A stretch of DNA of 64,000 nt from an uncultured virus (IMG/VR IMGVR_UViG_3300038365_000169) (lineage: Duplodnaviria; Heunggongvirae; Uroviricota; Caudoviricetes): IMG/VR virus record IMGVR_UViG_3300038365_000169; one strand, 5' to 3'. Each line of letters opens with the position of its first letter. Positions within the stretch are counted from its first letter, which is position 1. Positions 21,799 to 47,242 of the stretch are shown in pieces. Both the position numbers and the translations under genes were made by a program. The notes under the pieces are model-generated. The model was not told the DNA's origin, made no database searches, and saw nothing but the letters and a program-made list of their open reading frames with translations.

Positions 21799-23991
21799 TT
21801 AGTTTATTATTTGGTTTGCTGCATCCGTGTCAAGCCTTTGCTTGACGGGTCTGGTTAGGGTGCCATATCCGGAGCTGAGCTCCACAGCTTTGAATATGTT
21901 GTTCGCATTCCCAACGGCACCTATGGAAACAACATCAGCCCTCTCGCCCTCCTCCACTGGACGCAGCCCGTTCTTGTCCCTCTTGTAGGAGGTCATCTTC
22001 TTCGCTATCATCTGCAGGTTGAAATCATCCTGCTTGATGTTGGATTCCTCATACTGCCTCTTTAACCCCTCGTACAGAATCTTTCGCATCTCCTCCGTGG
22101 TGTGTGCCTCTCGCATCTCCTGCACTATCGGGCTGGTGCCCCATCCGTCCAGTGTGGCCATGATGATGGCTGCGGAGCTCTGCTTGCTCATGGATGCCAT
22201 GGTGCCGGTGTTGTGGGAAAGAAATGGGCCCACGTCATACACCCCGGTGTTGGTGGTGATGCATCTAACCCTGATGGGTTCGGCGCCAAACCTTTCAATG
22301 AACTCCAGTGGAACATGGGCGCCATATGGTGTGGCAATGTCCACCTCATGACCCTGGTTGACAGCCTCCATTAGCTCCTCTGCACATACCCAGCTGTCAT
22401 CCTCACCTGCCCCCACATCATTGCGGATCTCCTTGCTGACCTCAAACTGACCGTTCATCCTTTGGCCGTTTTTGTCATAGACATCTGCCATCACCAGATG
22501 GGTGTCAGAGCAGACAAGCTCAGCGCCAGATGCTACCATTCTGTAGCCAACCCTGAGGTCCCAGTCTGTTATGTCTAGAACCAGTGCACCGTTTGGGAAC
22601 TGGTCACCAAGCTCCAGCTCGGACCATGAGATGGTTAACGTTTTGCCCTTTCTGCTGATGTCAACCTCCTGATTCTCCCATATGGGGTGCTTCAGCTCCA
22701 TGCTGGCCTGCGTTAGGCCCTCTGAAAGGTTGGTGCTGATGACACCTCCAACCAGCTGGCCCTCCCTTACCACCTCCCCACCCTTGGTCATATGAGCGCA
22801 ATGAACGCATACATGACCGTTGGGAAGCTTGCAGTGCATGGCGTCCACATAGGGGCCACCGCAGTCAGACATCACCTGTGTGTCAGAAACTGCATAGAAA
22901 AGCTTTCTGGCCGTGTTGTGATGCACCATACCGTTGGTCTCGTAGAACCCGGTGTCGGTGCTGATGCAGCGAACAACCTCAACCCCAGCGTCCACAACGT
23001 CAAGTAGCTCCCTTTGCGTGCTGAGAAGAATTTTGGCCCCATGCTGATGCATGAATAAAATGTCCTCCGCGCACACCCAGTGGTTGTCGTCCTCGCCTAT
23101 GGCCTCACGTGCTCTCTTGCTGGCGGCTAGGTTCTCCACCCTCTCGCCGGCAATGATGATGTCGGCTAGAACCAGATGGTCATATGAAACCGTAACGGGA
23201 AGGCAGTCCATTACCTTTAGGGTCACGCACTGCTTCTCCTGCCAGTCACGTATCTCCTCCACGACAGAGCCGTCCTCAAACTGGTCCCCAACGTTTATGT
23301 CGGACCAAAATACGCTCCCAAGCTGTCCGTCCTCCAAAATGCCCACCTGGCTGTTCCTTGATATGCAGTAACCAGGTTTGCTGGTGCCGACACCCTTGGT
23401 GATCATGGCGATGCGTGCGTAGTACTGCTTGGCAAAGTACTCCCTTTCGGTTAAACCCTGCGCATAGCTGTGCTTTACGTCCACCATTTCGCCGTTATGT
23501 GTGGGAGTTTGGCCCACCTTGTCAAACATCTGGGTGATGGCGGATGTGCTGCCGCCCACACCGTACTTGTGCAGGTTGGTGAAGTATAACTTGTTTTTAA
23601 CATTTGTGTCCTCATATTCCTCCTCCCGGATGGGTAATGAGAACACAGGTGCGGCGTTAAAACCGATCTTGGATATTTCGTCAATCTGCTCAGGTGAGAG
23701 ATCTGCCATGACCTCCCTAAAGTTTTCCTTGGTAACCTTGCAGCCTGCAATTTCGTCAATTTGCTTCGCCAGCTGGTCTACCTCCTTCTGCGTGATCTCC
23801 CTGGCTACAGCAGCAGAGTCAAAAGTTCCGTCATCATGAGCTCTTTCCCCAATGCGTTTGACGAAATCCTCAGGGCTCTCACCAGCTTCCTGATGGGCAA
23901 CATGGTTGCACCTGCCATGACCCCGTAGCTCGGGAGGAGAGGTGCAGTAGGTCAGCTCGCCGTTAACGTTCAACGCTAAGGTTTTTTTCAT
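21799..23991 (-). CDS. RNA polymerase beta'-like C-terminal subunit (set 2) with N-terminal Cys/His tag and two mini-inteins
   Basis: SYAQGLTEREYF...AR...TSKPGY^TARKL (bridge helix); CVHC; GVISTNLSEGLTQASMELKH^TG (trigger loop); about 420 aa after splicing. Confidence 0.85.
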   Translation of the reverse strand: MKKTLALNVNGELTYCTSPPELRGHGRCNHVAHQEAGESPEDFVKRIGERAHDDGTFDSAAVAREITQKEVDQLAKQIDEIAGCKVTKENFREVMADLSPEQIDEISKIGFNAAPVFSLPIREEEYEDTNVKNKLYFTNLHKYGVGGSTSAITQMFDKVGQTPTHNGEMVDVKHSYAQGLTEREYFAKQYYARIAMITKGVGTSKPGYCISRNSQVGILEDGQLGSVFWSDINVGDQFEDGSVVEEIRDWQEKQCVTLKVMDCLPVTVSYDHLVLADIIIAGERVENLAASKRAREAIGEDDNHWVCAEDILFMHQHGAKILLSTQRELLDVVDAGVEVVRCISTDTGFYETNGMVHHNTARKLFYAVSDTQVMSDCGGPYVDAMHCKLPNGHVCVHCAHMTKGGEVVREGQLVGGVISTNLSEGLTQASMELKHPIWENQEVDISRKGKTLTISWSELELGDQFPNGALVLDITDWDLRVGYRMVASGAELVCSDTHLVMADVYDKNGQRMNGQFEVSKEIRNDVGAGEDDSWVCAEELMEAVNQGHEVDIATPYGAHVPLEFIERFGAEPIRVRCITTNTGVYDVGPFLSHNTGTMASMSKQSSAAIIMATLDGWGTSPIVQEMREAHTTEEMRKILYEGLKRQYEESNIKQDDFNLQMIAKKMTSYKRDKNGLRPVEEGERADVVSIGAVGNANNIFKAVELSSGYGTLTRPVKQRLDTDAANQIIN
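22210..22686 (-). mobile_element. Mini-intein 2 (159 aa, Pro1 start) in beta' trigger loop
   Basis: Starts PIWENQEV; block B CSDTHLV; ends VRCITTNTGVYDVGPFLSHN then Thr; removal restores MELKH-TG. Confidence 0.82.
22915..23367 (-). mobile_element. Mini-intein 1 (151 aa) in beta' bridge helix
   Basis: Starts CISRNSQV; block B VSYDHLV; ends VRCISTDTGFYETNGMVHHN then Thr; removal restores GY-TARKL; no endonuclease domain. Confidence 0.88.
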
Positions 23992-24100
23992 GCTTTATTG
24001 CACCTTCCTTTCCTAATGCTACCCTCATATGAAGGTTTGCATGAACAATACTCCTGTTTATAATGTTATATTTTACGTTCATAGATGATTCCCTTTCGCA

Positions 24101-26416
24101 CTAGTTCCAGTTTACACCGGTCATATCGACGCCTATGGAATGAAGCAGAGAGTTTAACTTCTGATGTGAGTCATAGGCCTCCTGGTGCCTTAAATAGTTG
24201 AGAATTTTGAGCCTGTCTGCGTCCGTAGATAGCAGAATAGCCTCCATTTCGCCCAATCGAACGCCCTCATACTCCTTGGTCCCGGAAAGCTCGTCTGCAT
24301 GTGAGCTCAGTGTTTTCTCGGCTATATGGTTCAACCTCATGACATACTCCACACCCGCTGTTGCTTCCACCTTCTTGCCGTTGGCAACCACTGTGCTGGT
24401 GCGGTTTATGCTGGGCTTGCCGTCAGAGTCTACATGAAGACCAACCTTGGCCGCTCCCTCATTGCATTCAAGCACCTGGCCAAGATTCTTCCTGCCAACC
24501 ACCCCAAGAGGGGTCATCACGATCTCTGCGGGTACTAACTTGCCGGTGCTTTCGTCCAAAATATGTGGCATCTCCTTGTCGGGTACCACCCTTGCCACCA
24601 CGCTTTTGCCGCCATGACGGTTGCTTAGCTTGTCGCCAACGGACATGGCATAGACGGTTTCCACCTCAAATGAGTCCTCTCCGACGCTCTTTACCACACC
24701 GCCGTACTTGACCTCGGTGCCGCCAATTTGCATCTTGCGCTCCAAACGTTGTCCAACCTTAAGAATGCCTAGATCCCTTTGGTCAAAACACCTGTACTGC
24801 TGAACTTGAACCGTGCCCATCTTGGCAGCAGCTGACTCAGAAATTTTAACCGCATCCTCAAAGCAGTCCTTGTCTGAGGTGTATGCCACCCTTAGGTTGG
24901 TTCCAATCTTGGCGCCCCTGATTTTCTCCCAGGCAGGTGTGGTCACTATTGGGTCCTCGCCACCCACTATCGGGCAGGCTTGGGTTAGATGCGCACAGGC
25001 CATGTTGGCACGTGATGGGTCGTCATGAAGCTTGTATGGAATGAAGTCGGATGGTGAAAGTGTGTCACCCTCTGGCTTCCTGTGAAGAAACCTGTCCTTT
25101 CCAATGTAGCCGCCAGATGCGCATGCCGTTAAGCCGACATTTTTGCCGCTGGATGCTACTAATGGGTCTATAATGCCCTCATGGCTGGGATGTGGAAGGC
25201 GAAGCTCATATGGAGCGCTGTCCTTGCTGTACCCGCCACGTCCGGTTAAGGAAATCTTCTGTGCCTGTGTGAGCGCAGAAATGGGGTTTAGGCTTTCGGC
25301 ATTTTGAACGTTGCTTCTGCCGACAAGGTCCTTTTTGATGTTTTCCGTTAGGTTTCTTTGGTAGAACAGTGGAAGTGTCTCCTCCAGCTGTTGCTCCGTA
25401 TACTCACCCTTGGCCTGGGGCTCGTTAACAACATTTCCCGCCTCACGAACCCTTCTTTGCTTCTCAAGATTTGTGCGGAATGTAACCCCCATACGGCGCA
25501 TTTGAAGCGCTATTTGCTCCTGAACCATGTCCTCATATCTGACCAACTGGCGCTTGCTGATGTCGCCAATTTCGTCCGGAGGAAGGCTTTTGAACTGGTC
25601 AAGATTTTCCTTTAGGTCTGGAAACCTCTCCAGAGCAACAGGGTCAATGTTGTCCAAAGCCCATATTTGGCCGCTCTCCAGGCCGGCGGTGTTTCCCGTC
25701 TTCCAGTAGTTTAAAACAGTTTCCTTAGGAACCACCTTGCCGTATATCTTTATGCCCTCAGCATCTGGATCCTTTGGTATCACCATGGCAACATGCCCGC
25801 TCTGCTGCTTGATGACAACATTCTCCGGATATGAGACCACACCTGCATTTCGCTGCTCAAGAACGGGTAAAACCCTCCATTTGCTGCCGTTGATGCTGAT
25901 GGTTCCGTCCTCCGCAACCACCGGTACCTCACCAAAGTCCACCTCATATATCTTGCCTCGAAAGCGGTACCTGGCCATTAATGCGTATGAGTTTTTGCCC
26001 TCAGTTAGTGACTGCTGGAAGTCCACCATCTCTGCCTCCTCCCATGTGCCGTCGCGCTTGCTGCCGATGACAAATGGGTTCTGAATGCTGCTGACAACCT
26101 CCTTCCAGTCTGGATCCCTTGCTATGCCGTACTCTGACACTAACTTAACGGTTAGCTCGGTGTTGTCAGGGATGGCCTTTACGGCCTTTAAGTGCTCCTC
26201 CATGCTGTACTGAAAAACCCTCTGATTCTTGGGGTTGCCAGACTCCTCGCCGTCCTGAGCGATGTCATTCTGTATGCTATCTATAAATTCATCAACGGAC
26301 TGCCCGTCCTGCTGATGGGCAACATGGTTGCATCGGCCACGCCCGCGAAGCTCTGGAGGGCTGGTGCAGTACGTTATGCGACCGTCCTCAGTTAGTGCTA
26401 ATACCTTGTTAGCCAT
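24101..26416 (-). CDS. RNA polymerase beta-like subunit (set 2) with N-terminal Cys/His tag
   Basis: NPISALTQ..ISLTGRGG, HPSHEGIIDP, HDDPSRANM...QACP, FEDAV, GDKLSNRHGGKSVV, PLGVVGRKNLGQVLE, RLNH, RLGEME. Confidence 0.9.
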   Translation of the reverse strand: MANKVLALTEDGRITYCTSPPELRGRGRCNHVAHQQDGQSVDEFIDSIQNDIAQDGEESGNPKNQRVFQYSMEEHLKAVKAIPDNTELTVKLVSEYGIARDPDWKEVVSSIQNPFVIGSKRDGTWEEAEMVDFQQSLTEGKNSYALMARYRFRGKIYEVDFGEVPVVAEDGTISINGSKWRVLPVLEQRNAGVVSYPENVVIKQQSGHVAMVIPKDPDAEGIKIYGKVVPKETVLNYWKTGNTAGLESGQIWALDNIDPVALERFPDLKENLDQFKSLPPDEIGDISKRQLVRYEDMVQEQIALQMRRMGVTFRTNLEKQRRVREAGNVVNEPQAKGEYTEQQLEETLPLFYQRNLTENIKKDLVGRSNVQNAESLNPISALTQAQKISLTGRGGYSKDSAPYELRLPHPSHEGIIDPLVASSGKNVGLTACASGGYIGKDRFLHRKPEGDTLSPSDFIPYKLHDDPSRANMACAHLTQACPIVGGEDPIVTTPAWEKIRGAKIGTNLRVAYTSDKDCFEDAVKISESAAAKMGTVQVQQYRCFDQRDLGILKVGQRLERKMQIGGTEVKYGGVVKSVGEDSFEVETVYAMSVGDKLSNRHGGKSVVARVVPDKEMPHILDESTGKLVPAEIVMTPLGVVGRKNLGQVLECNEGAAKVGLHVDSDGKPSINRTSTVVANGKKVEATAGVEYVMRLNHIAEKTLSSHADELSGTKEYEGVRLGEMEAILLSTDADRLKILNYLRHQEAYDSHQKLNSLLHSIGVDMTGVNWN

Positions 26417-26470
26417 AACTCAATCCCCTTTCTATAGCAGTAATTTTATGTTATATTTGAAGCACTATTC

Positions 26471-28258
26471 TCACTTATGGTCGTCTCCAAATATCAGCGA
26501 CTCAAGGCTGTCGTCAGCCTGCTTGTTGGACTTCGACTCGTCCCCAGAAATGCGCAGCTTTAGTGGCTTCCTTGGTGCCTCCTGCAGGTTGCCCTCCACT
26601 AACTGGTCATCCTGCTTGTGGCTCTCAACCTCCTGCAGATGCCTCAGTACCTCAGCCTCAGATTCTGTAATTTTGCCCTCCATCAAGTCTGCAAATTCCT
26701 CACGGTAGCTGCGGTCCATCTGTGGTACCTCACGCGAAATGGACCTTGAAACACCGGCATTTTGCTTCCTGGAAAGCCCCTGATCAAAGATGTAGGGTTC
26801 AAACCTGAAAACCTCACTCGTTATCTTTCGGTTCAAAGTGGGGTACTTGGAGATATAAATGGCCGTTGGCTTTCTGCCCTTCTCTGGGTCAGGCTTGCGT
26901 AGATTCATCAAAACAGCCTCAATGTCAGCCAGCTGCACGCCCGCAAACTTTTCGGCCGTATTTCTAGTGGCCCCTGAATAGACAATAAATGTGTTTATAG
27001 TGCCTAAAATGCTGTTTAAATAGGCTTCGTTCGTCTGTATGACAATTTGGTTGATGTCCTGCATGGAGAGTGTCGTTGCTATGCGGGCGGAGCGTCCTTT
27101 TTCCAATATATCCTTAATAATAAACGGGTTTTCCAGAGTGCCAAATTCGTCCACATATAGAAAGGTGTTGCTTCTGGGCGGTACATTTGTGAATTCGTCC
27201 AAAAGATCCCTAAAAAGCAGTGAGGAGAAGCTGGTTGCTATCTCCCTGTTGGAAGATATGAAGCTGACCACCAGAAGAAATTTGCTGTTCTTTAACCTGT
27301 CCAATGCCAGCGTCTTTTCGTTTTGAAAGGTAAACATTTTGTCCAGGGAGCTGGTGACCAAAATCTCCAGAAGCTTGCTAACCGTCGTGTATGCGTCATA
27401 TTCGTTATTAGCTGCCTGGTATCTCTTCATGTACTGGTAGTACTCGTATGTGTATGATATCTGGCTGACATCCTTGCCCTGCATTTCGGCCTTTTTGACC
27501 ATCTCGGCATATCTGTGGCTGAACTCCTGGATGGTCTTCTGCAGCAGTAGCTGCGTGGACGTCTTGTAGTGTGCGTCTGAACCGTCCAAAGACCACTTTC
27601 TCATGTTCATAACGCCCTCTATGCGCCCGGCATTGTTCAAATTTCTGAGTGGGTCATAGTTAAAGTTGCTGGCCCCGGAGGATAGGTTGTAAACCTCATA
27701 ACCGTTGTTCAATGCGTATCTCTCCAGCTTGGCAATCTCCTTGGGGTCGCCCTTGTAGTCTGCAAATATGATGGAGTCCCCGTGCGCTATGTTCTGCCTC
27801 ATTAATGACATTATGCCGTAGGTCTTCCCGGAGCCGGTGCTTCCGCTGATTAATGTGCTGCCGGCAGCTGCAATTTCGCTGGATATGATGGCGGCACCGT
27901 TGTACTTCAGCTGGTAGCTGTTGTATGGTAATACCCTACCAATGACCCTATTAGCCTTGCTTTTGTCCACGGCTATGGGCTTCAGTAGGTTAAAGATCAA
28001 CCTAAGGGAGAGGACCCTTCCAGTGAAGTCATAGGAGATTCTGTTGGCAATGACCAGATAAAGGGTCATGCTCAACGTTGCCGCAGCAAACCATAGCGCG
28101 GAGGTCCAGAAGGAATCCAACGCATTCACCCTGTACCATAGCACAACCGTTATGGGCAAAACTATGGACAAAGTGAACATTCTAGTGCATTTACGGCATA
28201 GAATTAGCGCCATAATGTAGGTTAAAAATATGACCAATGCATGCACCAATTCGTACAC
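26471..28258 (-). CDS. VirD4/TraG-like type IV coupling protein
   Basis: N-terminal TMs, GSTGSGKT, DYKGD, YDPL, YVDEF, KGRSARI..TLSMQDINQ. Confidence 0.8.
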   Translation of the reverse strand: MYELVHALVIFLTYIMALILCRKCTRMFTLSIVLPITVVLWYRVNALDSFWTSALWFAAATLSMTLYLVIANRISYDFTGRVLSLRLIFNLLKPIAVDKSKANRVIGRVLPYNSYQLKYNGAAIISSEIAAAGSTLISGSTGSGKTYGIMSLMRQNIAHGDSIIFADYKGDPKEIAKLERYALNNGYEVYNLSSGASNFNYDPLRNLNNAGRIEGVMNMRKWSLDGSDAHYKTSTQLLLQKTIQEFSHRYAEMVKKAEMQGKDVSQISYTYEYYQYMKRYQAANNEYDAYTTVSKLLEILVTSSLDKMFTFQNEKTLALDRLKNSKFLLVVSFISSNREIATSFSSLLFRDLLDEFTNVPPRSNTFLYVDEFGTLENPFIIKDILEKGRSARIATTLSMQDINQIVIQTNEAYLNSILGTINTFIVYSGATRNTAEKFAGVQLADIEAVLMNLRKPDPEKGRKPTAIYISKYPTLNRKITSEVFRFEPYIFDQGLSRKQNAGVSRSISREVPQMDRSYREEFADLMEGKITESEAEVLRHLQEVESHKQDDQLVEGNLQEAPRKPLKLRISGDESKSNKQADDSLESLIFGDDHK

Positions 28259-28265
28259 CTCCCCA

Positions 28266-29267
28266 TTAGAATTTGGGAGACGGGATCACAAACTCCAGCA
28301 GCTCCGTTCTGCAGGTGCCGGTCCCTCCCACCTTTTCGTGGGCCTCCCTGATGTATGCGGCAATCGATGATCCGTTGCATAACCAGTAAACAGACCCGAA
28401 TTTGTTGTTGTCCTTATACCTGAGCATGGCTTCCTCATAGTCTGCCTTTTTGTTGCTTAATTCCACCTCTATGGCAATGGAGCGTGATCTGCCCTGGTCA
28501 CGAATGACAGGTATGATTAGGTCGGGAATGTGAAACTTGAAGTCCTTTTTGACCTCCCCGGTGTTGTCCACTTTTTTTACAAGGCTGAACATGCTGAAGT
28601 CCCGTAGCTCAGACGTGAGCCTTTCGCCGTTTTTTATGCCCTCATTTATGTCATGCTCCACCTGCATTATTTTGTTATATTGGCTGAATAGCTTGGGGTT
28701 TCTGAAGTCCTCCTCGCCTATGATGTTGGTGCCAGGTATCTCTCCGTCAAACCCTAGCTCGCTTATCCTTGGCATCACGGGCTCCCTGTCCAATATCTCG
28801 GAGTAGCCGGCCATAACCTCAAACATGACCAGCTCCTCGCATATGCTGTGACGTAGGGTGTTGAATGGTATGTTGCAGTACCTGTATGGTGGCTGCCTGA
28901 ACATCTGGAAAAGAGCATGGGTGGGACGCAGGTACTCCCCGGTAACCTCAGCTTCCTTCCATACTATTCCGAGTTGAACCCATTTGTCCACCATTTCGTC
29001 CACCTCTTGCTCGTTACCTGCAAGCTTAAACCCGTAGCTGTAAAACCTCCTTACAAGCCACATGGGCACAAAAAGAAACTTCATGATGACCGTAAGAACC
29101 ACTTCGTCAAAAGCTGTCAGGTCCACGCTTACCAGGGAGGTGGAGTAGGTGATAACAGCCCCATTTTTTCTTACAGAGGGTATGGACCTATGGTACCTGC
29201 TTCCCCATGTGTTATTTCTTGCGTTCCTGGTGCCTGCCAATATCTCCTCCGGACCCAAGCTTTTCAT
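28266..29267 (-). CDS. Replication-relaxation (Replic_Relax)-like protein, candidate relaxase
   Basis: wHTH-like N-part, LRH, IPDLII...IAIEVELSNK...Y...VYWLC; directly upstream of the coupling protein. Confidence 0.55.
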   Translation of the reverse strand: MKSLGPEEILAGTRNARNNTWGSRYHRSIPSVRKNGAVITYSTSLVSVDLTAFDEVVLTVIMKFLFVPMWLVRRFYSYGFKLAGNEQEVDEMVDKWVQLGIVWKEAEVTGEYLRPTHALFQMFRQPPYRYCNIPFNTLRHSICEELVMFEVMAGYSEILDREPVMPRISELGFDGEIPGTNIIGEEDFRNPKLFSQYNKIMQVEHDINEGIKNGERLTSELRDFSMFSLVKKVDNTGEVKKDFKFHIPDLIIPVIRDQGRSRSIAIEVELSNKKADYEEAMLRYKDNNKFGSVYWLCNGSSIAAYIREAHEKVGGTGTCRTELLEFVIPSPKF

Positions 29268-29283
29268 TGCACTTCACCTCCCA

Positions 29284-30129: not shown

Positions 30130-30180
30130 TACGCCCAGCCATCAGCCTATGTAGTTTCTTTCAAGCTTTCCCTGCACTGG

Positions 30181-32118: not shown

Positions 32119-32140
32119 CCTGCTGACCTCCTTTACCCAT

Positions 32141-32368: not shown

Positions 32369-32380
32369 ATCAAACCCTCC

Positions 32381-37481: not shown

Positions 37482-37540
37482 CCCTTTCTTAATTTAGTCG
37501 AGCATGCATTAGCTCTTGTAAACTTATTGTTGCACTTCTT

Positions 37541-37560
37541 CCCTTATATTAAGCAGGTTT
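37541..37560 (-). promoter_or_regulatory. Conserved upstream motif AAACCTGCTTAATATAAGGG (candidate element-specific promoter)
   Basis: Near-identical copies at about 60497, 54894, 18519 and 13902, all just upstream of minus-strand genes. Confidence 0.6.
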
Positions 37561-37577
37561 ACTGCCTAGCTCTATGC

Positions 37578-38852: not shown

Positions 38853-39929
38853 TTAGCCGTCCTCCTCTGTGTATACTTTGTCTAAAACTTCAATTTCGAT
38901 TGGTATGGTCTTTTGTACGTTCTTTTCGTCCATTCCCTTGCTTTTGAGCCATGTCTGGCATCCCCACTTGATGTGGCAGCTGCCGCAGTAGCGCATGTAT
39001 GAGCACTCAAAACGCTTGGTCTCCCTGGCTTTCTTGATATGCTCCAAATGGTTCATGGTTTGCTCTAAAACCTTGGACTGCTGAACCAGTGAGTGAACGT
39101 CCATTTCAACATTCCTTAGGCTCTTGGTGTATGCACCGGGGCAGGATAAAATTACCTTTTTGACCGTCTCGCCGTACTCTGCTTCAGCTCCCCACTTGTA
39201 GTAGATCATCTGGGGTAGGTATCCATGCTCCCCAAGTAGGTACGGGTTGGGATCACCCTCACCAGTTTTGTAGTCCACCACACAGAGCCCTATGTTGCGA
39301 ACGTCAATGCGGTCCATCTTTAGGTACATTGGAACGCCAACGTCCACCCCAAGCGGTCTGATGTTGGTCTTGATGAAAATCTCGGTGGCCACCTGTAGCT
39401 CCCTATGGTTCATTGGTCCGCCAAGATAGTCGTCTGAGTCCCAGTAGCCCTCAACATGGAGTAAAACGTCCTTCTCGCGCTCAAATTGCTCGTCCTTTAT
39501 GACGGTTTCCTTGGTGATTCTGTCCAGCTCCACCTTGGTTCTAACCTCACCGTTATAGAAGGACTCCATGATGTTGTGGAATGTCCTGCCCACTGATGTG
39601 GCCGTGCCGGTTTTCTCACGAAATAGCTTTCCGACCAAATATCCGGCGGGACATAGGTCAAAAGACTTCATGGCGGATGGTGAGATGTACCCGCCGGATG
39701 TGGAGTTTAAAATGTGCTGGAGTGGATGGGTTCTGCCCAAGTTTTCCGCCTGAAATTTCTCCGACTGCATGCTGATGAATGACACTATGTCCCTATACAG
39801 CTGGGAGGCGTCAATTATGCCGTTCTCCTGATGTATCTCTGACCTAAATATTACAACGTCCTGCTTCTCTGGCTTGCCGCTAACCTCTTCAATTTTGCTC
39901 TCTGGTAATTCCTGTGCATGATTGTCCAT
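38853..39929 (-). CDS. PD-(D/E)XK nuclease, AddB/RecB/Cas4-like with 4-Cys cluster
   Basis: ISPS..FDLCP, GRTFH, DRID, VDYKTG, Q..YY, C..YCGSC....C. Confidence 0.8.
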   Translation of the reverse strand: MDNHAQELPESKIEEVSGKPEKQDVVIFRSEIHQENGIIDASQLYRDIVSFISMQSEKFQAENLGRTHPLQHILNSTSGGYISPSAMKSFDLCPAGYLVGKLFREKTGTATSVGRTFHNIMESFYNGEVRTKVELDRITKETVIKDEQFEREKDVLLHVEGYWDSDDYLGGPMNHRELQVATEIFIKTNIRPLGVDVGVPMYLKMDRIDVRNIGLCVVDYKTGEGDPNPYLLGEHGYLPQMIYYKWGAEAEYGETVKKVILSCPGAYTKSLRNVEMDVHSLVQQSKVLEQTMNHLEHIKKARETKRFECSYMRYCGSCHIKWGCQTWLKSKGMDEKNVQKTIPIEIEVLDKVYTEEDG

Positions 39930-39943
39930 AATTGTTCCCTCCT

Positions 39944-40855
39944 TTATGCATCATTCCCATATGTGTAGTTATATCTGCACTGAAACTCAAAAAGTGCATT
40001 GCGGTACAGGTCAGCGGGAATGCTCCTGTTGGGAGGTGAGTACGCTACATCCTTCCGTAGGTCGAGTCCGTTTGGAATGACCAATGGGTCATAGGTGGAA
40101 AGTACATCCCCATGAAGCTCTGTGATCTTTCGGCATGCAATATTGATCTTGCTGCCCTCATAAAGAATGGACCTTAGGATCACAGGTCTGTTGTAGAAGC
40201 GTAAGCATATCATCCTGTTGGGGATGGGAACTCCCTCCTTGGTGCACTCCACAGCAAAAGCTTCATGGTATCGATCTCCTTCTAACACTACCGAACTGTC
40301 AGTTGAGTTGTCGTTCGGTCTCCGGATGACCTTCACCAACATCTGCTTGTAGAGCATCTCCTTCTCCTTTACGTCGGGAAACTTCATGCTTTGCAGGGAT
40401 AGCTCACCGTCTATAAAGTCCACCAGCTTGCCCTTGCCCTGCAGCTTTACCTTCGCGCATACCAGTGCGTTTATCTTGTCCCTATAGCCTAACTTGCCGT
40501 ATACCTCTCGGAATTTTTCGTCAGTTTTGACCAAACCTGCGTTTAAAAGTAGGTTTATCTCGTGCATAAACCTTACTGATATCGTTGGGTCGTACTCTGA
40601 ACGTACCCCGCAGAAGTATAGCATCTCCGCTGATCCATCCACAATTTTCATTACGTTCTTTTGAACGATGGTTAGGACGGGTTCCTTGGGCTTTATGGCC
40701 TTGGCATATCTATGGTCCACATCCACCCCGCTTTCCTGAAGAACCTCTAGCATCTCGTCACGGAATGCGCACACCTGTGTGAGGTCACTGCAGTAGCTGG
40801 CCTGACCCTTTAGTCGCTCATATAGCTCTTTTTCCTTGATTTGAACCTCTATCAA
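39944..40855 (-). CDS. Hypothetical protein, possible RecG-wedge-like OB fold
   Basis: LRFYNRP....L..G..I...P...AYS.....LYR resembles the RecG wedge region; no helicase motifs. Confidence 0.35.
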   Translation of the reverse strand: MIEVQIKEKELYERLKGQASYCSDLTQVCAFRDEMLEVLQESGVDVDHRYAKAIKPKEPVLTIVQKNVMKIVDGSAEMLYFCGVRSEYDPTISVRFMHEINLLLNAGLVKTDEKFREVYGKLGYRDKINALVCAKVKLQGKGKLVDFIDGELSLQSMKFPDVKEKEMLYKQMLVKVIRRPNDNSTDSSVVLEGDRYHEAFAVECTKEGVPIPNRMICLRFYNRPVILRSILYEGSKINIACRKITELHGDVLSTYDPLVIPNGLDLRKDVAYSPPNRSIPADLYRNALFEFQCRYNYTYGNDA

Positions 40856-40874
40856 GCTGTCACCTCCCTTACTT

Positions 40875-42416
40875 TTATATAAAAGGTTCTACCGGACCGT
40901 TTTTCTCCCGACGTATGTTCATAGCTATGCCATGACGGTAAAAGTTGAAGCAGTGCTTGACCATATAGCCGTGCTTCTCTATGCGGTCGTCAAATATGCT
41001 CACCACACCCTTGCTGTCCCTATCCCTCCATAGGCGCCCGGAGGACTGCAGAATGTCGTTTTGTGTCTTGGGAATGGTGAACCCCTTCCATGGGTTAAAT
41101 CCGTTCTTTCCGTTGTTGGTCAGATAGTCCTGCATCGCTCTGGCCTTGTCATTCCAGTTGGGAAATGGAATTCTGTTGAGGCAGACAAAATTTAGGTTTG
41201 GTATGTCTATGCCCTGAAAAAGTGCCCTTGATCCGCATAAAACAAGCTTTTTCTCTGGGTCAGCCTTTAGGAATTCGTCTAAGTCGGTCACCATGTGGTA
41301 GCCCCTATGGCCGTCACACTCCAGTGCCATCTGCACGTCATGGTTGGTGGTGGAAAGGCATAGACCTCGAACAAGACCCTTTTCGTTCACATAGTCCAAA
41401 AACTCTAAATATGCTACCTTAAAGTCCTCCCTGGGTAGGGCAATAAATTCACTTTGGCTGTAGTCACAGAACTGCTCCCTCTCCCTGTAGGTGTTGTTGC
41501 GGCTGCAGCCAAACATCTTCAGGGTGAACTCGTCCATGGTGGCGGACATTAGCAGTGTTTTGGGTCTTTTCATCTCGAACTCATGGTAGAAGTAGCTGAT
41601 GCTGTAGCATCCCTCGTCCGTTTCGATCCAGTTGTTGGGTGCGGGTCTGGTCTCAAAAAACTGCCGTGCAAGCTCCCTGGTGTGCCCCTTTAGCGCATTC
41701 ACTAGAGCGTCCACCTGTGACTGTGGAAGTGGTTTTCCGTTCATAATGTTGCTTTTTACCAGCATGTTCATTGGTGGTTTTAACTTGTTGATGGCGACCT
41801 CAATCTTGGCAAGGTCATTTTTGTCTAGCTCCAATGATATCCAAGAGTCATAAAAGGATGAAAATGTGTGTGCTTCATCCACCACCAGTAGGTTGCAGTT
41901 GTTGAAGGTGCCCAGCTCCTGATGCGCAAGATAGGTGCTGTGGTTTGTTATGACCACATATCCGGCCTCTCCTGATATCTTTGAGCATAAGCTTCTGTAC
42001 TCCTTTATGGTGAAGGGGCAGAACTGCTCCAGTGGGTCATCATGTTCAACATCCAGATGGTTGTGCTTGGTGCCGCATAAATGCCTTTCAAGTGTGAATG
42101 GTTTAAAACCCTCCATCTCTAGGCCGTCCTCCACCCACTGCTTGGGGCAGTTTAAAGCCTTTGAGCCGATCAAAACCAATGGCTTTAGGCCCATCTCCAG
42201 AGCTCTTTGCTCCATTAAGAATACCAGATTGTTGAACCCTGTGGACACCACAACATTGCTCAATGGGTTTTTCTCCAGCCACCTTTTGGCAACCTCAAGA
42301 ATTACATAGGTTTTGCCGGAGCCGGTGGGGCTTTCGACAGCCACAGTGTTGGCAGTTTCCAAGCATGTTTCAGCAAAATGCTGCTGAATTTGTTGATATT
42401 TACGTAGAACTATCAT
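40875..42416 (-). CDS. DinG/XPD-like SF2 helicase
   Basis: ESPTGSGKT, ITNH, VDEAH, SAT, QGIDIP, RIPFP, QSSGRLWR. Confidence 0.85.
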   Translation of the reverse strand: MIVLRKYQQIQQHFAETCLETANTVAVESPTGSGKTYVILEVAKRWLEKNPLSNVVVSTGFNNLVFLMEQRALEMGLKPLVLIGSKALNCPKQWVEDGLEMEGFKPFTLERHLCGTKHNHLDVEHDDPLEQFCPFTIKEYRSLCSKISGEAGYVVITNHSTYLAHQELGTFNNCNLLVVDEAHTFSSFYDSWISLELDKNDLAKIEVAINKLKPPMNMLVKSNIMNGKPLPQSQVDALVNALKGHTRELARQFFETRPAPNNWIETDEGCYSISYFYHEFEMKRPKTLLMSATMDEFTLKMFGCSRNNTYREREQFCDYSQSEFIALPREDFKVAYLEFLDYVNEKGLVRGLCLSTTNHDVQMALECDGHRGYHMVTDLDEFLKADPEKKLVLCGSRALFQGIDIPNLNFVCLNRIPFPNWNDKARAMQDYLTNNGKNGFNPWKGFTIPKTQNDILQSSGRLWRDRDSKGVVSIFDDRIEKHGYMVKHCFNFYRHGIAMNIRREKNGPVEPFI

Positions 42417-43480
42417 GGCCCCTTTCCCTCCTCCACTGAGTATTGGTTCATGGCAATCTGAAGCTTTAGGGAGCGGTCCTCAAACTGTCCCGCATTTAGT
42501 ATCTTCTCAAATGCTCTGTTGGTGGGTGCAAAAATGTAGGCGCCAAAAAGATTTCCGCTTCTGTTGATGGAGCCCACCAGAGATGCCACAAATGGCCCCT
42601 CCTCGTCAAATCTGATCCTGGACATCAATGCAATCTCATAGAACCTGGAAGATACCTTGTCACCCTTTAGGTCCTCCACCAGCTCGTTTATCCATGCGGA
42701 AATGGACTCCCAGTTGTAGCCACCGCTGTATCCGCCCGTTAAGGTGTCATTTACGTCCTTCTTTCTGCCCTTGTTCATGGAGTTTAAAGCGCTCTGTGTG
42801 GCATGCTCAGTTACCATTAAAGCGGTGAACACCCCCACATTATGAACACCCCCTGGTAACGCCCCTGCACATCTTTTGCATATGCCGCGCATCTTGCCTG
42901 CAACTCTGGCGTCCTCCGCTGTGTGGGGAAAGCTGGCGCATGAGAGAGGGGATCGGACATGAACCTGTTCAAGTTCTTTCTCCCCACATATTTGCACAAA
43001 TTCGTCAAACTTCATGCGTACATGTGACTTAAGTTCGTTCACCCAGTTGTACCTGATGCGATAGTCATAAAGCTCCTGGTTGATCTCTGATAGCCTCATT
43101 CGCACGCCCTCGCTGTCACAGCTCTTGGACACAATGGTGAAGTCATCCGCTGATGCCATCAGCAGCTTGTAAAAATAACCAGCCTTGGATATATCCGTGT
43201 TGTTTGAACTCATCACCGACTGGATGAAGGCGGCGCTTTCGCCCTCGTCATAGCTGGCACCCTGACGGTGTGCCATGTCTAAAAAGTCCTTTTCATTGTT
43301 AAAAAAGTCAAAGATCATCTGCATCTGGCTGTTATGCCCGGTTCTTATGAACTCGGCTATGTCACCCACTGTGGGTATAACCTCCTTCTGCCACAGATGC
43401 TCACCCAGCATTTGGTTGACCTGGAGGTACTCCTCCCTTCCGAGATGCTCGCACATCTCGAGTCCCTTCTTCAGGTTCAT
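42413..43480 (-). CDS. RNA polymerase beta'-like C-terminal subunit (set 1)
   Basis: DISKAGYFYKLL (bridge helix), VRSPLSC, GICKRCAG, VGVFTALMVTEHATQSAL (trigger helix). Confidence 0.82.
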   Translation of the reverse strand: MNLKKGLEMCEHLGREEYLQVNQMLGEHLWQKEVIPTVGDIAEFIRTGHNSQMQMIFDFFNNEKDFLDMAHRQGASYDEGESAAFIQSVMSSNNTDISKAGYFYKLLMASADDFTIVSKSCDSEGVRMRLSEINQELYDYRIRYNWVNELKSHVRMKFDEFVQICGEKELEQVHVRSPLSCASFPHTAEDARVAGKMRGICKRCAGALPGGVHNVGVFTALMVTEHATQSALNSMNKGRKKDVNDTLTGGYSGGYNWESISAWINELVEDLKGDKVSSRFYEIALMSRIRFDEEGPFVASLVGSINRSGNLFGAYIFAPTNRAFEKILNAGQFEDRSLKLQIAMNQYSVEEGKGP

Positions 43481-43498
43481 CTACATCATCACCCCTTC

Positions 43499-44965
43499 CT
43501 ACCTTTCATCCCTTAAATAAAATAGGTTTTCCAGAAGTCCCTCGTCAGCCGCAAATATGAAGTCCTCCACAATATGATTGCGTACGGTTCCATTTGCATA
43601 GTTCATATGGCTTCTGCTGGGCAGAATGCGCTTGGCCTCCTCAATGGCGGCAAAAGAGTAAAGAGCAACCTCAAGAAGAACGTCGCCATCCACGTCTGCA
43701 TTCATGCCGTCCATCATGATGGGGTTCATCCCCACGCATCGAAGGCCCATTGTGTCTATTCCGTCCCATTCACCCGTTTCAGGGTCTATTTCCACCCCTT
43801 GACCCCATTTTTCCACATCGCCATAGTTTGGACTTTTTGGGTCAATCCATCTCATCTGTCTGATGTTGCAGTATCTTTCGTTATGCTTCAGGCATAGGTC
43901 TGTGCCCTCGGTTTTGCCCACTGGATATATGCTGGCTATTCTGGGCTTCATGGCCACAATGGAGGCATGGTTGATCGTAGGCGGTCGGTTGACCAAAAGA
44001 ACCATGTCACCCTCCACGAGATGCCTGTTGACCTCCTCCATGTTTCCGCCGTACTTTTTGAATAGATAGGGGTACAATGTTTCCACCAATGTGTCACCTA
44101 TGATGATTACGTCCTCGTGAACGTCATGACGGTTAACAAGGGTGGCGCGCACAGCACCGGAAATTGGATGTGATATTATCTCACCCTTTAGAATCGAGTA
44201 CTCTACGTCCTGAAGCTCCGCAAATAGCTTGTCAAGAATCTGGTGGTAAAGATCACTTATGACCCGATAGGCTGATAGCAGGTATAAGGGTCTGCCCTTT
44301 GCCAGCTCCTCCATCTCCAGTGCGTTGTTGATGCGCTTGATGATGGTGGAATATAGGTCATTTATGGGGGTTATAAAAGGGTTTGCGCTGCTTATTACCA
44401 TTGGCCTGAAGATGGTGTGTGGTACGCTTAACCAGTCCACCATGCTTTCCTTGATCCAAGACTCGCTAACACCCACATGCCGCAGTGCATCCACGCCAAT
44501 AAGTGTCCTATCGCCCTCAAACTGCAAGGGGTCAAGGCCCTCATCAACATCCATTATCTCGTAGCTGTCCTGGTCGACATATACAAATGAGCGGTACTCG
44601 GCAATGCTCTTGATTTGCTCCACGGTGGCCTTTATGCGCCTGTTCCATTTGCCGTCATCATTTCGATGTGACTTGTCCCAATCAGCAAACGCTACACTGC
44701 ACCAGCAGCAAAGCTCGATATAGAAGTCCGGCATGCTCTTGGGGTCCACAACACGAGTGCCGCAGATGTCACACACTCCCTCGTCAGTTTTTAGGCCGCA
44801 GTCGCACCTGTATAGGTTGCCAAATACCCTCTTGGAAAAGATCCCCTCGTCATGATAGACGAGTGAGTCAACCTTTTGGCGCCTGTGCGGCTCAAGAATA
44901 AGATGGGATGTTACTCGGTTGCCCTCCATCTTATGAATTTTCATCCTGGAAACCTTTACATTCAT
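43499..44965 (-). CDS. RNA polymerase beta'-like N-terminal catalytic subunit (set 1)
   Basis: GIFSKRVFG..YRCDCG...CDICG zinc finger; FRPMV; INDLY; NRPPT; catalytic NADVDGD. Confidence 0.92.
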   Translation of the reverse strand: MNVKVSRMKIHKMEGNRVTSHLILEPHRRQKVDSLVYHDEGIFSKRVFGNLYRCDCGLKTDEGVCDICGTRVVDPKSMPDFYIELCCWCSVAFADWDKSHRNDDGKWNRRIKATVEQIKSIAEYRSFVYVDQDSYEIMDVDEGLDPLQFEGDRTLIGVDALRHVGVSESWIKESMVDWLSVPHTIFRPMVISSANPFITPINDLYSTIIKRINNALEMEELAKGRPLYLLSAYRVISDLYHQILDKLFAELQDVEYSILKGEIISHPISGAVRATLVNRHDVHEDVIIIGDTLVETLYPYLFKKYGGNMEEVNRHLVEGDMVLLVNRPPTINHASIVAMKPRIASIYPVGKTEGTDLCLKHNERYCNIRQMRWIDPKSPNYGDVEKWGQGVEIDPETGEWDGIDTMGLRCVGMNPIMMDGMNADVDGDVLLEVALYSFAAIEEAKRILPSRSHMNYANGTVRNHIVEDFIFAADEGLLENLFYLRDER

Positions 44966-44986
44966 GCTCTCCCTCCTTAGATGTTT

Positions 44987-47242
44987 TTAGAATAGGTCAA
45001 TCTGCTCATCCGTTAGCATTCTCTGCAGCTGGACAAGCTCATGCCTGATGTTTCCACTCATGCCGGTTCCGATGTTAAACTCGAACCCTATGGTCTTCAG
45101 TATGTTGAAGAACCTGAGTGAGTTTGCAGGCTCAGGATTGATCATGCCCGTTCTCTGCATCTCCTGAATCTGGGCAAGTGAGTCATGATGCTTGCTGATG
45201 GACCTCACATCAATCTCGTTCATCACGTTGAATAAACCGCGTGATGCTAGATTTAATAGCTCCATCTCGCCAAACTTGAGCATCCTGGCATAGTTGCTCT
45301 TGATGTAGCTGTGGCTCTGCTTGCCGCATGCGTCATGGTCTAAACGGAGGATTACATTGATGCCCACCGGTTTGACGCTGCTCTTCCCACCGAAAAGAAC
45401 CACGCTCTTTTTGGAGAATTCTGCCATCTCCTCGCTGTACATCTCCACGGCATCCAAAATGTTGTCTACATCCTCATGGCCTGTGGCAGAGGCCCATGCC
45501 TCGAAAAGCTGCCCTAAGCTCCTTCGGCGGTACACCGATAGGCCGGAAACGATGATGTCGAAAGGTCCCGCAGGAAAGCTTCCAACCGCTTCAGCTAAGC
45601 AGGGCATCTCATGGTCCTCCAGTATGAGTGATACCACACCCTTGGAGCCATGCAGGTTGGTTAGCTTGTCACCAACAGAGAAGGGAACGTCAGCCTCAAC
45701 CACCACCCACTCATAGCTTAAGGACTGAATCTTGATGTTTCTGTAGTTATTGCACATTGTGGAGCCTACCAGCTCCATCAGGTCCTCCACAGCCATAAGA
45801 TCGCCTTCAACATACTTGTCCGCAAGCTTGTGGTATGACTCCCTGCTGTTCAGGTGTATCTTTCTGGTCTTTTTGGACTTTAACCTTCTGGCAAATGAGC
45901 GTGAGATGATGATGCTGTCCCCAAAGTTAAAGCCCTTCCAGTCCCCAAAAACAATTCTTGCTGGTGTTTCATGCGTAAATGGGTCATTTTCGCCCATAGT
46001 GGGAACAGCCTGTGCGCGCAGCTTGGCGGTCATCATGATGCGCTTTGGTGCGTTGTTGCTGGAGAAGTTTGAGGAGGAAAGCACGCTTAGGTTCCTATGG
46101 ACGGTCCATTCGGGATGAACCGCAATGTCCCACATGTCCCTTAGCTTTCCGTCAATTAGGTTCCAAAGTTTGCCGTCCTCCACCTGCACGTCATCTAGAA
46201 GTAACCTGCTCTTTCCGGCGCTTTTGTTCGTGCTGGTCTTGAATGCGTCAAAAAATCTGTCGCTCTGGGTGAACATGAAGTTGCTGTTGAACTCATTCTT
46301 GTAGATTACGGTGCGTGAGTTTTCAAGTGCAAATAGGTCGTTAGAGGCAAGAACCAAATTGTTGGAACCGTTTCTGTCCAATGCGTCATTTCTCACGCGC
46401 TGCGCGGTGAACATTTTGACAATATTGATGGGTATGGATACCTTCATGATGGGGTTTGCAAACCTCTTGCTGCGACGCACCATGTTGAACATTTCGTCCA
46501 CACGTGTGAATCTGAAGTTATAAACCGCACAGGGGTCATGCTCTGGAAGAAGCCTCATGGCCTCCACAAAGTTCTCCCTGGTGAGCTCCTCAGGTTTCAG
46601 ATCCAACCATGCGGCTAACCATCCTCGGTTTAACTCCGTCATGCGATCCCATGGATCGAAATCATCAATTTTAACCTCGAATTCGCCTGAATTTATGCTA
46701 TAGATCCATGCCTTTTGGTAGTAGCATAGGTTGCCAACACGATAGATTAAACTGTAGTTCGCCATGGCAGTTATGCGTAAAACGTACCTGCTTTCGCCCA
46801 GATACCAGCATAAATCGTCAGGAACAGGGAGGTATGCCAGAGGTGCACGTTTGACCATTTGGTCCTTTTCGCCGTCCATTTTGTCCTGTGTGTACTGAAA
46901 GGTGGCGTAAAGGCATATGATGCCGGACTGGTCATAAACTAGCTCATAGGAGCCTGGAACCATCTTGTCCATGTCATTGCATTTGCCCTCCTGAAAGAGC
47001 GTTTTCAGCTCATTTTCGCCGTTGTTCCACAGCCTGTCAGCACATTCGTTGAGATGCCTCTGAACCGCATCTTGGTTGTGCCAGTTCGCAAGTGGTGTTA
47101 CGCCGAAATATCTCTCATTTTCAGCCTTCCAAATGTCCTTTTGGCGCTGCCACAGGTTGTTAATGTTGTGTATGCTCATTTCATCTCTCCTTTCTTCCCT
47201 AAGATTAAACAGGTTTAGCAGTTGTATGCCCTCAGAGTGCAA
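44987..47242 (-). CDS. RNA polymerase beta-like subunit (set 1)
   Basis: KRIMMTAKLRAQAVP, WKGFNFGDSIIIS, GDKLTNLHGSKGVVS, RRSLGQLFE, RLDH, KFGEME. Confidence 0.9.
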   Translation of the reverse strand: MHSEGIQLLNLFNLREERRDEMSIHNINNLWQRQKDIWKAENERYFGVTPLANWHNQDAVQRHLNECADRLWNNGENELKTLFQEGKCNDMDKMVPGSYELVYDQSGIICLYATFQYTQDKMDGEKDQMVKRAPLAYLPVPDDLCWYLGESRYVLRITAMANYSLIYRVGNLCYYQKAWIYSINSGEFEVKIDDFDPWDRMTELNRGWLAAWLDLKPEELTRENFVEAMRLLPEHDPCAVYNFRFTRVDEMFNMVRRSKRFANPIMKVSIPINIVKMFTAQRVRNDALDRNGSNNLVLASNDLFALENSRTVIYKNEFNSNFMFTQSDRFFDAFKTSTNKSAGKSRLLLDDVQVEDGKLWNLIDGKLRDMWDIAVHPEWTVHRNLSVLSSSNFSSNNAPKRIMMTAKLRAQAVPTMGENDPFTHETPARIVFGDWKGFNFGDSIIISRSFARRLKSKKTRKIHLNSRESYHKLADKYVEGDLMAVEDLMELVGSTMCNNYRNIKIQSLSYEWVVVEADVPFSVGDKLTNLHGSKGVVSLILEDHEMPCLAEAVGSFPAGPFDIIVSGLSVYRRRSLGQLFEAWASATGHEDVDNILDAVEMYSEEMAEFSKKSVVLFGGKSSVKPVGINVILRLDHDACGKQSHSYIKSNYARMLKFGEMELLNLASRGLFNVMNEIDVRSISKHHDSLAQIQEMQRTGMINPEPANSLRFFNILKTIGFEFNIGTGMSGNIRHELVQLQRMLTDEQIDLF

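Follow-up and report, generated by a model that had tools for sequence, protein, structure and literature searches.

According to the available text of PMC7824862, two split multisubunit RNA polymerases (msRNAPs) in one genome are a hallmark of group 1 jumbo phages, and in phages of the phiKZ/AR9 type the beta subunit is divided into two polypeptides in the non-virion polymerase (nvRNAP) and three in the virion polymerase (vRNAP). The same text mentions injected polyvalent proteins with ART and GNAT domains. Among conjugative elements, the gut 'Hodor' megaplasmids are described in the available text of PMC12934698 as carrying replication, partition, type IV secretion system (T4SS) and surface modules. 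Here we analysed a 64,000-nt stretch of DNA (the window), about half of a roughly 123-kb source contig, that encodes two split msRNAPs, called set 1 and set 2, together with genes of conjugation type. The best reading of the window is a plasmid-like, conjugative-type element. A literature search over titles and the beginnings of abstracts returned no description of a plasmid-like element of bacteria that encodes a multisubunit RNA polymerase of its own, nor of the N-terminal domain (the tag) that heads the set 2 subunits. PMC12934698 was the sole match of that search whose abstract opening suggested a large conjugative element of this sort; the terms 'RNA polymerase' and 'RNAP' occur 0 times in its main text, a point in which the Hodor megaplasmids differ from the present element.

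The window element resembles the phiKZ/AR9 polymerases, as far as these are presented in the available text of PMC7824862, in that two paralogous, highly diverged msRNAP sets lie in one mobile genome, beta' comes as two proteins, of which the N-terminal one contains the DxDGD barrel and the C-terminal one the bridge helix and trigger loop, sigma and alpha are not recognised, and one of the sets may have a special role when a new cell is entered. It differs in that beta is a single chain of ~750 aa in both sets, in that T4SS, partition and Rep-like genes are present and virion genes were not found in the regions read, and in that set 2 scores higher on bacterial than on phage profiles, has a common N-terminal tag and has a beta'C interrupted by predicted inteins. 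With Gram-positive conjugative plasmids and integrative and conjugative elements (ICEs), Hodor included, the element and its relatives have in common genes for type IV coupling protein-like (T4CP-like), TcpC, TrbL/VirB6-like and AAA_10/VirB4-like proteins, as well as wall hydrolases, sortase-dependent surface proteins, ParA/ParB and Rep-like genes, but the element differs from those plasmids and ICEs in its phage-like full replisome. Until now, a mobile genome with two split msRNAPs has been characteristic of jumbo phages; here the pair, conserved over 60+ protein clusters, appears in what are best read as conjugative plasmid-like elements, and if this is true, transcription independent of the host would, in bacteria, not be confined to viruses.

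Two divergent split RNA polymerases in one window

The initial annotation had placed five RNA polymerase (RNAP) genes in the window, and all five open reading frames (ORFs) were confirmed at the same coordinates on the minus strand, encoding proteins of 751, 488, 355, 771 and 730 aa:

44987..47242, minus strand: set 1 beta-like subunit, 751 aa, untagged (PF00562, phrog_3295, NCBIfam rpoB, barrel motif)
43499..44965, minus strand: set 1 beta'N, 488 aa (PF00623 and NADVDGD)
42413..43480, minus strand: set 1 beta'C, 355 aa, with bridge helix, Zn cluster and trigger loop (family profile, AlphaFold2/Foldseek)
24101..26416, minus strand: set 2 beta-like subunit, 771 aa, with N-terminal tag (PF00562, PF04565, rpoB; 60+ orthologue clusters)
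21799..23991, minus strand: set 2 beta'C, 730 aa (420 aa minus two inserts), with the tag at 23842-23991

That annotation had overlooked two intein-like inserts within 21799..23991, the N-terminal tag of set 2 and, on the plus strand at 1..801, another tagged gene, all of which are described below.

Proteins of the window were scanned against Pfam (61 proteins), PHROGs (42) and NCBIfam (44). The set 1 beta-like protein matched RNA_pol_Rpb2_6 (PF00562) over the Pfam cut-off (E 3.4e-13), phrog_3295 'RNA polymerase beta subunit' (E 2.9e-13) and NCBIfam rpoB (43.5 bits vs an equivalog cut-off of 896), and its barrel motif GDK..HG.KG begins at residue 524. Set 1 beta'N matched RNA_pol_Rpb1_2 (PF00623) with 27.0 bits at a cut-off of 25.3 and has the catalytic NADVDGD at residues 422-428 (DNA 43682-43702). 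As a single sequence, set 1 beta'C found no match in the searches made, among them Pfam, PHROGs and NCBIfam. This protein has 61 relatives (clusters) in a collection of 5.8 billion proteins, and a profile built from 32 of them matched bacterial beta' chains of the PDB over the stretch from the bridge helix to the trigger loop. The best E value, 2.8e-11, is partly inflated because that PDB construct includes a protein A tag, and the RNAP stretch alone gave 2.2e-7; dozens of further beta' chains matched at 1e-7 to 1e-3. Foldseek with the AlphaFold2 model of set 1 beta'C (pLDDT 79.3, pTM 0.67) also led to beta' chains (E 7.5e-7, prob 1.00), so that both the family profile and the fold support its assignment as beta'. 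From the sequence, profile and fold matches of the three subunits, we therefore consider set 1 a complete beta/beta'N/beta'C trio. It totals about 1,600 aa, and its genes are located within the replication module.

The set 2 beta-like protein matched RNA_pol_Rpb2_6 (PF00562) over the cut-off (E 7.4e-13), Rpb2_3 (PF04565; E 4.1e-8) and NCBIfam rpoB (112 bits vs the equivalog cut-off of 896), with the GDK..HG.KG motif at residue 594. Its family comprises 60+ clusters of 698-790 aa, down to 33% identity. The set 2 beta'C matched a cyanobacterial beta' weakly and only up to the bridge helix (E 0.0074), and NCBIfam rpoC with E 3e-4; the single-sequence match is weak because two inserts interrupt the protein. 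An orthologue free of the inserts (L033:5233-6495) matched RNA_pol_Rpb1_5 (PF04998) with E 2.5e-19 and rpoC with 59 bits.

A search for a second catalytic beta'N was among the checks proposed with the initial annotation. The window has no second DxDGD protein. One was found outside the window by a search with the tag profile: P0227, a protein of 500 aa, combines the tag, PF00623 and the motif NADHDGD, and scores 100.5 bits on rpoC and 85.5 bits on phrog_2987. Its longest source contig is 123,431 bp, its three sources are also those of the cluster of the window's set 2 beta (contigs of 123,228 and 123,431 bp), and the two clusters have an equal contig count. We infer that P0227 is the set 2 beta'N of the window's element or of a near-identical sibling. 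Further tagged beta'N genes with DxDGD-type motifs are present in two relatives (L038 and L030). Once spliced, set 2 would total about 1,690 aa. Both sets bear the catalytic signatures of msRNAPs, namely GDK..HG.KG in beta and, in beta', DxDGD, the bridge helix and the trigger loop.

The two sets resemble each other little: beta against beta gave 27% identity over about 300 aa, beta'N against beta'N 22% over 147 aa (E 0.006), and beta'C profile against profile a probability of 73%. This bears out the earlier claim of two mutually divergent msRNAP sets, and on these sequence comparisons they are not recent copies of each other. Subunits were placed by profile bit scores, and the region in common with cellular and phage RNAPs is short and extremely diverged; on this measure set 2 shows moderate divergence, with somewhat higher scores against bacterial profiles than against phage ones (112 vs 91, 100.5 vs 85.5 and 59 vs 39 bits), and set 1 is far more diverged and about equally distant from both. 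Scores against the bacterial rpoB/rpoC models (43-112 bits, cut-offs near 900) lie an order of magnitude under the equivalog cut-offs, and therefore neither set is a copy of host rpoBC; the initial annotation had named a clustering with host rpoBC as an outcome that would overturn it. Its statement that no alpha or sigma gene was recognised in the window was upheld, as no Pfam family of alpha, omega or sigma was matched among the 61 window proteins at E<=0.01. The two enzymes would also be new, very compact lineages, ~1,600 and ~1,690 aa compared with ~2,500 aa spanned by the bacterial rpoB and rpoC models (family model lengths 1096-1238 and 1147-1459), which suits them to structural and evolutionary studies of how the cellular enzyme arose.

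The families of set 1 beta'C and set 2 beta list the same longest contigs (144,417; 97,918; 134,871; 291,455 bp), so that having two polymerases is a conserved property rather than a chance feature of the window's contig. One family member, annotated as a 'hypothetical protein', comes from the genome of an Enterococcus isolate, where it lies on a contig of 140,471 bp. A scan of genome contigs with the beta alignment gave 42 pattern matches and zero relatives, scans of IMG/VR with beta, beta'N and the alignment gave zero relatives and one tag-only match, and tblastn against curated phage and plasmid collections returned remote RNAP similarity and no relatives.

The polymerases bring in a rival explanation, by which the window belongs to a new-lineage jumbo phage or phage-plasmid with its virion module in the regions not read, the tag being a capsid-packaging signal, set 2 the virion RNAP, and the remaining tagged proteins being ejected along with the DNA. 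We regard it as rather unlikely. It would account for the pairing of split msRNAPs, the jumbo-phage hallmark named above, and for the matches of the RNAP subunits to the phage families phrog_3295, 24349, 2986 and 2987. It is harder to reconcile with a beta made as one polypeptide, against two or three in phiKZ-type enzymes, with IMG/VR being without a relative of beta or beta'N, and with the member on the 140-kb contig of a cultured isolate.

Intein-like inserts in the catalytic motifs of set 2 beta'C

The set 2 beta'C of the window was aligned with 14 orthologues (15 sequences), and two inserts stood out:

22915..23367, minus strand: insert 1, 151 aa (residues 209-359), a predicted mini-intein in the bridge helix
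22210..22686, minus strand: insert 2, 159 aa (residues 436-594), directly after the trigger-loop His

Of the 15 aligned sequences, 7 have insert 1 and the other 8 lack it cleanly; it starts with Cys1 and ends with His-Asn followed by Thr. Insert 2 is paralogous to insert 1 and occurs, among the 15, in the window copy only. It has Pro at residue 1 and the same terminal His-Asn followed by Thr, and at its site one relative (L030) has a split form that begins with Ser. Motifs like block B and block F of inteins are readable in the insert sequences. Residue 1 varies (Cys, Ala, Pro, Ser) and the block-F-like Cys is constant in every copy read out, a combination that we take to resemble class 3 inteins. 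Neither insert matched a Pfam family at E<=1e-3, and no intein was among their PDB sequence matches at E<=5. The case for inteins is accordingly built on the anatomy of the inserts, their sporadic presence and the relatives. We predict both inserts to be intein-like. Like inteins in RNAP and other information genes, they sit in the most conserved catalytic motifs, have insert-free orthologues and end in His-Asn with a following Thr; they differ from known inteins in matching neither a Pfam Hint/intein family nor, significantly, any PDB sequence.

In one metagenomic run, a 71-kb contig is ~99% identical to the window over 18001-38000 and carries both beta'C inserts. Contigs of 4 DNA runs cover 18001-38000 without joints, and there is therefore no insert-free beta'C allele among them.

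The gene is broken up in some relatives. In a relative of 92.6 kb, the tagged beta'C lies in three genes (L030:9965-10693, L030:15279-16031 and L030:4236-5201; likewise in L027), and the breaks fall about 11 and 14 residues into the two inteins, the short N-fragments starting with Ala and Ser. In a distant relative of 183,731 bp (the 183-kb relative), it lies in two adjacent pieces (L031:9992-12481), and the N-fragment begins with Pro. These genes look like atypically split inteins whose subunit would require protein trans-splicing for assembly, and in having beta'C in two or three pieces broken inside the inteins the relatives resemble naturally split inteins. Inteins, whole or split, in the bridge helix and trigger loop would offer a natural case of an RNAP catalytic subunit that needs protein splicing for its assembly.

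A common N-terminal tag on set 2 subunits and other proteins

The first ~50 residues are common to set 2 beta and beta'C, P0227 (beta'N) has them as well, and no set 1 subunit carries them. Two features of the window are added here:

26258..26416, minus strand: tag of set 2 beta, about 50 aa (tag HMM E 2.2e-29; AlphaFold2 model)
1..801, plus strand: third tagged gene, 267 aa read, its 5' end cut by the window (tag HMM E 1e-22)

The protein of 1..801 found no Pfam, PHROG or NCBIfam match. The tag HMM recognised 3 ORFs in the window, dozens in related loci and, over 99 kb of the 183-kb relative, 8 ORFs. In an alignment of 51 copies, the positions of Cys, Cys, His and His are invariant or near-invariant, and the AlphaFold2 model (pLDDT 88.9) consists of three strands and a helix. 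Searches for a known counterpart gave chance-level rows in Pfam at E<=10, no PDB sequence under E 0.56 with the tag profile, and no Foldseek match at E<=0.001 (best E 1.1). HMMER against 1.84 billion representatives found the tag in 386 clusters at E<=1e-3 and in 263 at E<=1e-10, and it starts within the first 9 residues in 149 of the 150 best clusters. Judged by sequence, the tag is a new protein family, strictly N-terminal, that heads hundreds of proteins of such elements.

To see what the tag is attached to, the best 150 clusters minus 27 shorter than 150 aa, 123 in all, were scanned with Pfam at E<=1e-5. RNAP subunits make up 20 of them (11 beta'N, 5 beta'C, 4 beta), followed by HEAT repeat proteins (14), SF2 helicases (4), Fic (3), DUF3232 (3) and HipA_C (2), with single cases of BRCT, DUF6745 and NlpC/P60; 74 are without a family. 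Among 34 tagged proteins taken from loci there are 18 DUF4116 repeat proteins, the genes of which are often in tandem, along with 4 RNAP subunits, 2 HEAT proteins, 1 NlpC/P60 protein and 9 without a family. The cargo mix looks like a set of host-takeover and anti-defence proteins. In its mix of polymerase, helicase, Fic, kinase and wall hydrolase it resembles proteins delivered with DNA, such as the N4 vRNAP, polyvalent proteins and T4SS effectors, and it differs from these in that the putative cargo would be many separate proteins, each with one common N-terminal domain.

We read the tag as a putative delivery signal, and three other functions were weighed. If the DNA were that of a jumbo phage, the tag could serve capsid packaging, as set out above; in this regard, a 398,101-bp IMG/VR record classed as phage, with a CheckV completeness of 100, holds a tagged protein, and one tagged protein has an NlpC/P60 wall hydrolase, as virion-associated lysins do. 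The tag copy of that record is its only one (L001:9986-11149, a 388-aa protein), and the record has no relative of the tagged beta family.

Alternatively, on a plasmid-like element, the tag could be an assembly or recruitment handle that joins the split subunits and docks accessory factors onto set 2, which we think unlikely. Such a handle would explain why all three set 2 subunits and no set 1 subunit are tagged, repeat proteins are typical scaffolds, and the confident model of a small three-strand and helix unit with four Zn-type ligands would suit the role; the tagged SF2 helicases also recall the helicase linked to jumbo-phage RNAPs in the available text of PMC7824862. It leaves out that set 1 assembles without such a handle, that 74 of the 123 tagged proteins have no known domain, that the effector-like Fic, HipA_C and NlpC/P60 proteins have no obvious role with a polymerase, and that in the 183-kb relative the tagged genes adjoin T4CP/T4SS genes and not one another.

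Finally, the tag could be a small nucleic-acid-binding zinc knuckle that tethers proteins to the DNA or RNA of the element. The Cys-Cys-His-His ligand pattern would fit, and the tagged protein of the 398-kb phage record weakly matches an HNH endonuclease family (E 0.0044, under the cut-off), but the tag has no similarity to any known DNA-binding family, its strict N-terminal place (149/150) would be unusual for a generic binding module, and such a function does not readily account for a tagged wall hydrolase fusion. We hold this function to be very improbable.

Under the preferred reading, in which the tag may be a delivery signal, the family of 386 clusters amounts to a list of candidate co-handled proteins of large conjugative elements, and it makes the question of what such elements send ahead of their genes directly testable. 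A complex prediction for the T4CP-like ATPase (4-row alignment) with the tag (51 rows) scored 0.00 without controls and counts neither way.

Some observations on individual tag copies are added. In the tagged protein P0230 (L034:54-1286), whose only source is one contig of 1.5 kb, an Ig-like region and an NlpC/P60 cell-wall hydrolase are fused to the first ~200 residues of a set-2-type beta'N. P0145 (246 aa) carries the tag twice, as two matched stretches (E 3e-49). In the window, positions 26312-26338 in the tag-coding part of the set 2 beta gene are matched by both ends of a 71,313-bp contig from another run. It seems that tag-coding DNA is repeated closely enough among paralogous genes to break assemblies.

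Conjugation-type genes and the nature of the element

The initial annotation had seen Tad pilus, VirD4-like and relaxase-like genes in the window. The genes that bear on conjugation, replication and partition are the following:

26471..28258, minus strand: T4SS coupling-protein-like (T4CP-like) ATPase, directly upstream of the tagged beta (Pfam TrwB_AAD_bind, TraG-D_C)
28266..29267, minus strand: 333-aa protein, conserved upstream of the T4CP-like gene (Replic_Relax-like lead)
30181..32118, minus strand: 645-aa protein with a DxDxD stretch (weak plasmid Rep/primase lead)
47261..49373, minus strand: two VirB11/TadA-type secretion ATPases, just upstream of set 1 (PF00437, 55 and 79.9 bits)
5704..11008, minus strand: Tad/Flp-like pilus genes (ParA/TadZ-like, CpaB/RcpC, TadE-like, two membrane proteins)
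34165..42416, minus strand: replication/repair block downstream of set 1 (XPD-like helicase, PD-(D/E)XK nuclease, split DnaE, RadA-like)

The VirD4-like claim stood: the T4CP-like ATPase matched TrwB_AAD_bind (41.7 bits, cut-off 20.5) and TraG-D_C (29.3 bits), both over the Pfam cut-offs, with NCBIfam TraD/VirD4-like matches under cut-off. The gene order of 333-aa protein, T4CP-like gene and tagged gene is kept in 4 of the 4 loci that have the T4CP-like gene, with orthologues of the 333-aa protein in L033, L032 and L023. The two VirB11/TadA-type ATPases exceed the Pfam cut-off for T2SSE, and their NCBIfam VirB11/TrbB/TadA matches lie under cut-off. For the Tad pilus the support is partial, as most scores fall under curated cut-offs: RcpC reached 29.8 bits (cut-off 28.8) with an additional SAF match, TadE (17.1), AAA_31 (25.3) and Peptidase_A24 stayed under, CpaB TIGR03177 scored 54.8 bits vs a cut-off of 71, and neither TadB/C nor a Flp pilin was identified among the window proteins by Pfam or NCBIfam. 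As to the relaxase claim, no relaxase family was matched among the window proteins in Pfam or NCBIfam, and what it has for it is the Replic_Relax-like lead of the 333-aa protein, from an Atlas cluster (0.94) in which 16% of members have PF13814. The 645-aa protein was likewise linked by the Atlas (0.88) to Replicase/RepB_primase clusters, a lead only.

Relatives add further conjugation-type genes, with AAA_10/VirB4-like genes in L007, L006 and L023, a TrbL/VirB6-like gene in L007 and TcpC in L004 and L007; searches of the window gave none of these three. In two of these loci (L007, L004), the tagged beta gene comes after the TcpC and TrbL/VirB6-like genes. AAA_10/VirB4-like, SLT, sortase and LPXTG pilin genes lie near tagged genes in relatives, and in the 183-kb relative tagged genes adjoin T4CP/T4SS genes instead of one another. 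The window itself encodes a phage-like full replisome (split DnaE, DnaB, DnaG, topoisomerase II, SbcCD, RNase H, exonuclease, RadA), a ParA-like protein and IbrA/IbrB-like PAPS-reductase/ParB genes.

In the window, neither Pfam (61 proteins) nor PHROGs (42) gave a match to a capsid, terminase, portal or tail family, which upholds the earlier statement that capsid and tail genes are not visible there. The same searches gave no credible virion family among 114 proteins from 99 kb of the 183-kb relative, where the T4CP-like ATPase matched a terminase by its P-loop only and a chemoreceptor matched a tape-measure family, and Pfam alone gave no virion family among 98 proteins of other relatives. For a jumbo phage, the lack of any credible head, packaging or tail match in the window and in those 114 proteins is unfavourable, as is the range of TcpC, VirB6/TrbL-like, VirB4-like AAA_10, T4CP-like, sortase/LPXTG pilin, ParA/ParB and Rep-like genes across the window and its relatives. 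The plasmid-like replicon proposed by the initial annotation agrees with the conjugation-type genes present and with the searches for virion families, with one part of the claim left standing less firmly: the regions read leave out 46% of the 183-kb relative and some half of the contig to which the window belongs, and virion genes may therefore lie there.

Several further points weigh against a conjugative element with a delivered set 2. Pfam and PHROGs miss many jumbo-phage structural proteins. The Atlas neighbours of the 333-aa protein are mostly labelled 'Viruses, Uroviricota', which would also suit a jumbo phage, and no relaxase, VirB4 or VirB6 was found inside the window. The set 2 beta'N is absent from the window DNA, and the link to P0227 rests on matching contig sizes and sources. 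Set 1 beta has Leu in the barrel motif where set 2 beta has Arg. As to the tag, its occurrence in the 398-kb phage record fits nucleic-acid binding or packaging as well as delivery, and known T4SS signals are usually C-terminal.

Window DNA was recovered in fermentation-metagenome runs from three studies, and no RNA run was listed among those that contain it. The best explanation is that the element belongs to Bacillota-type bacteria of fermentation microbiomes.

A model for the two polymerases

Taken as a whole, we consider it an evenly balanced proposition that the window is part of a ~123-kb conjugative plasmid-like element with its own replisome and two split msRNAPs, the second of which is delivered with the DNA. 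Set 1 would be the resident enzyme, responsible for transcribing the element within the host cell. Set 2 would be a specialised second polymerase, its subunits having a handling signal in common with effector-like cargo (SF2 helicases, Fic, HipA-like kinases and repeat proteins), and that signal would most likely serve delivery with the DNA into a new cell. Before this, set 2 beta'C would lose one or two inteins by protein splicing, and in some relatives it would be joined from two or three gene products. A delivered set 2 would give two-stage, host-independent transcription, in parallel to the packaged virion RNAP of phiKZ/AR9.

In its fullest form, which we put forward as possible but doubtful, the element ships a complete msRNAP together with helicases, Fic/HipA-like enzymes and repeat proteins into the recipient, the tag being their address label. 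The shipped polymerase would then start transcription of the element before and without the host polymerase, as the conjugation counterpart of the injected RNAPs of phiKZ and N4.

Other features of the window

The minus strand carries nearly all genes of the window in one 60-kb block, and the G+C content ranges over 45-53%. Scans for tRNA and Rfam families gave no match in the window. An exact 16-base repeat occurs at two intergenic sites (37538-37553 and 60494-60509, minus strand), each upstream of genes. Looser copies (14-mer, <=3 mismatches) number 10 vs 4.45 expected, all on the minus, that is the coding, strand. The repeat could be an element-specific promoter or mere start-region bias; the 14-mer was not used as evidence for a promoter, as 3 of 100 shuffles reach 10 copies, several copies overlap ribosome-binding sites and it is absent from the relatives (46 loci).

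In the replication block, DNA polymerase III alpha is split into adjacent ORFs at 35409-38852, one of 424 aa (PHP and the start of the NTPase) and one of 690 aa (finger onward). Directly downstream of the tagged RNAP genes, 18598-21721 encodes a protein of 659 aa, which has a hydrophobic segment resembling a signal at its N-terminus, and a Pro-rich, membrane-anchored protein of 377 aa, both without a family match. Two cargo-like features complete the feature list:

54970-56405: two CoA-transferase subunits
63323-63841: O6-methylguanine-DNA methyltransferase

Between these, 56451-62281 holds three PAPS-reductase/DUF3440 (IbrA-like) genes, which have ParB-like partners in relatives; several copies of these gene types are present in the 183-kb relative.

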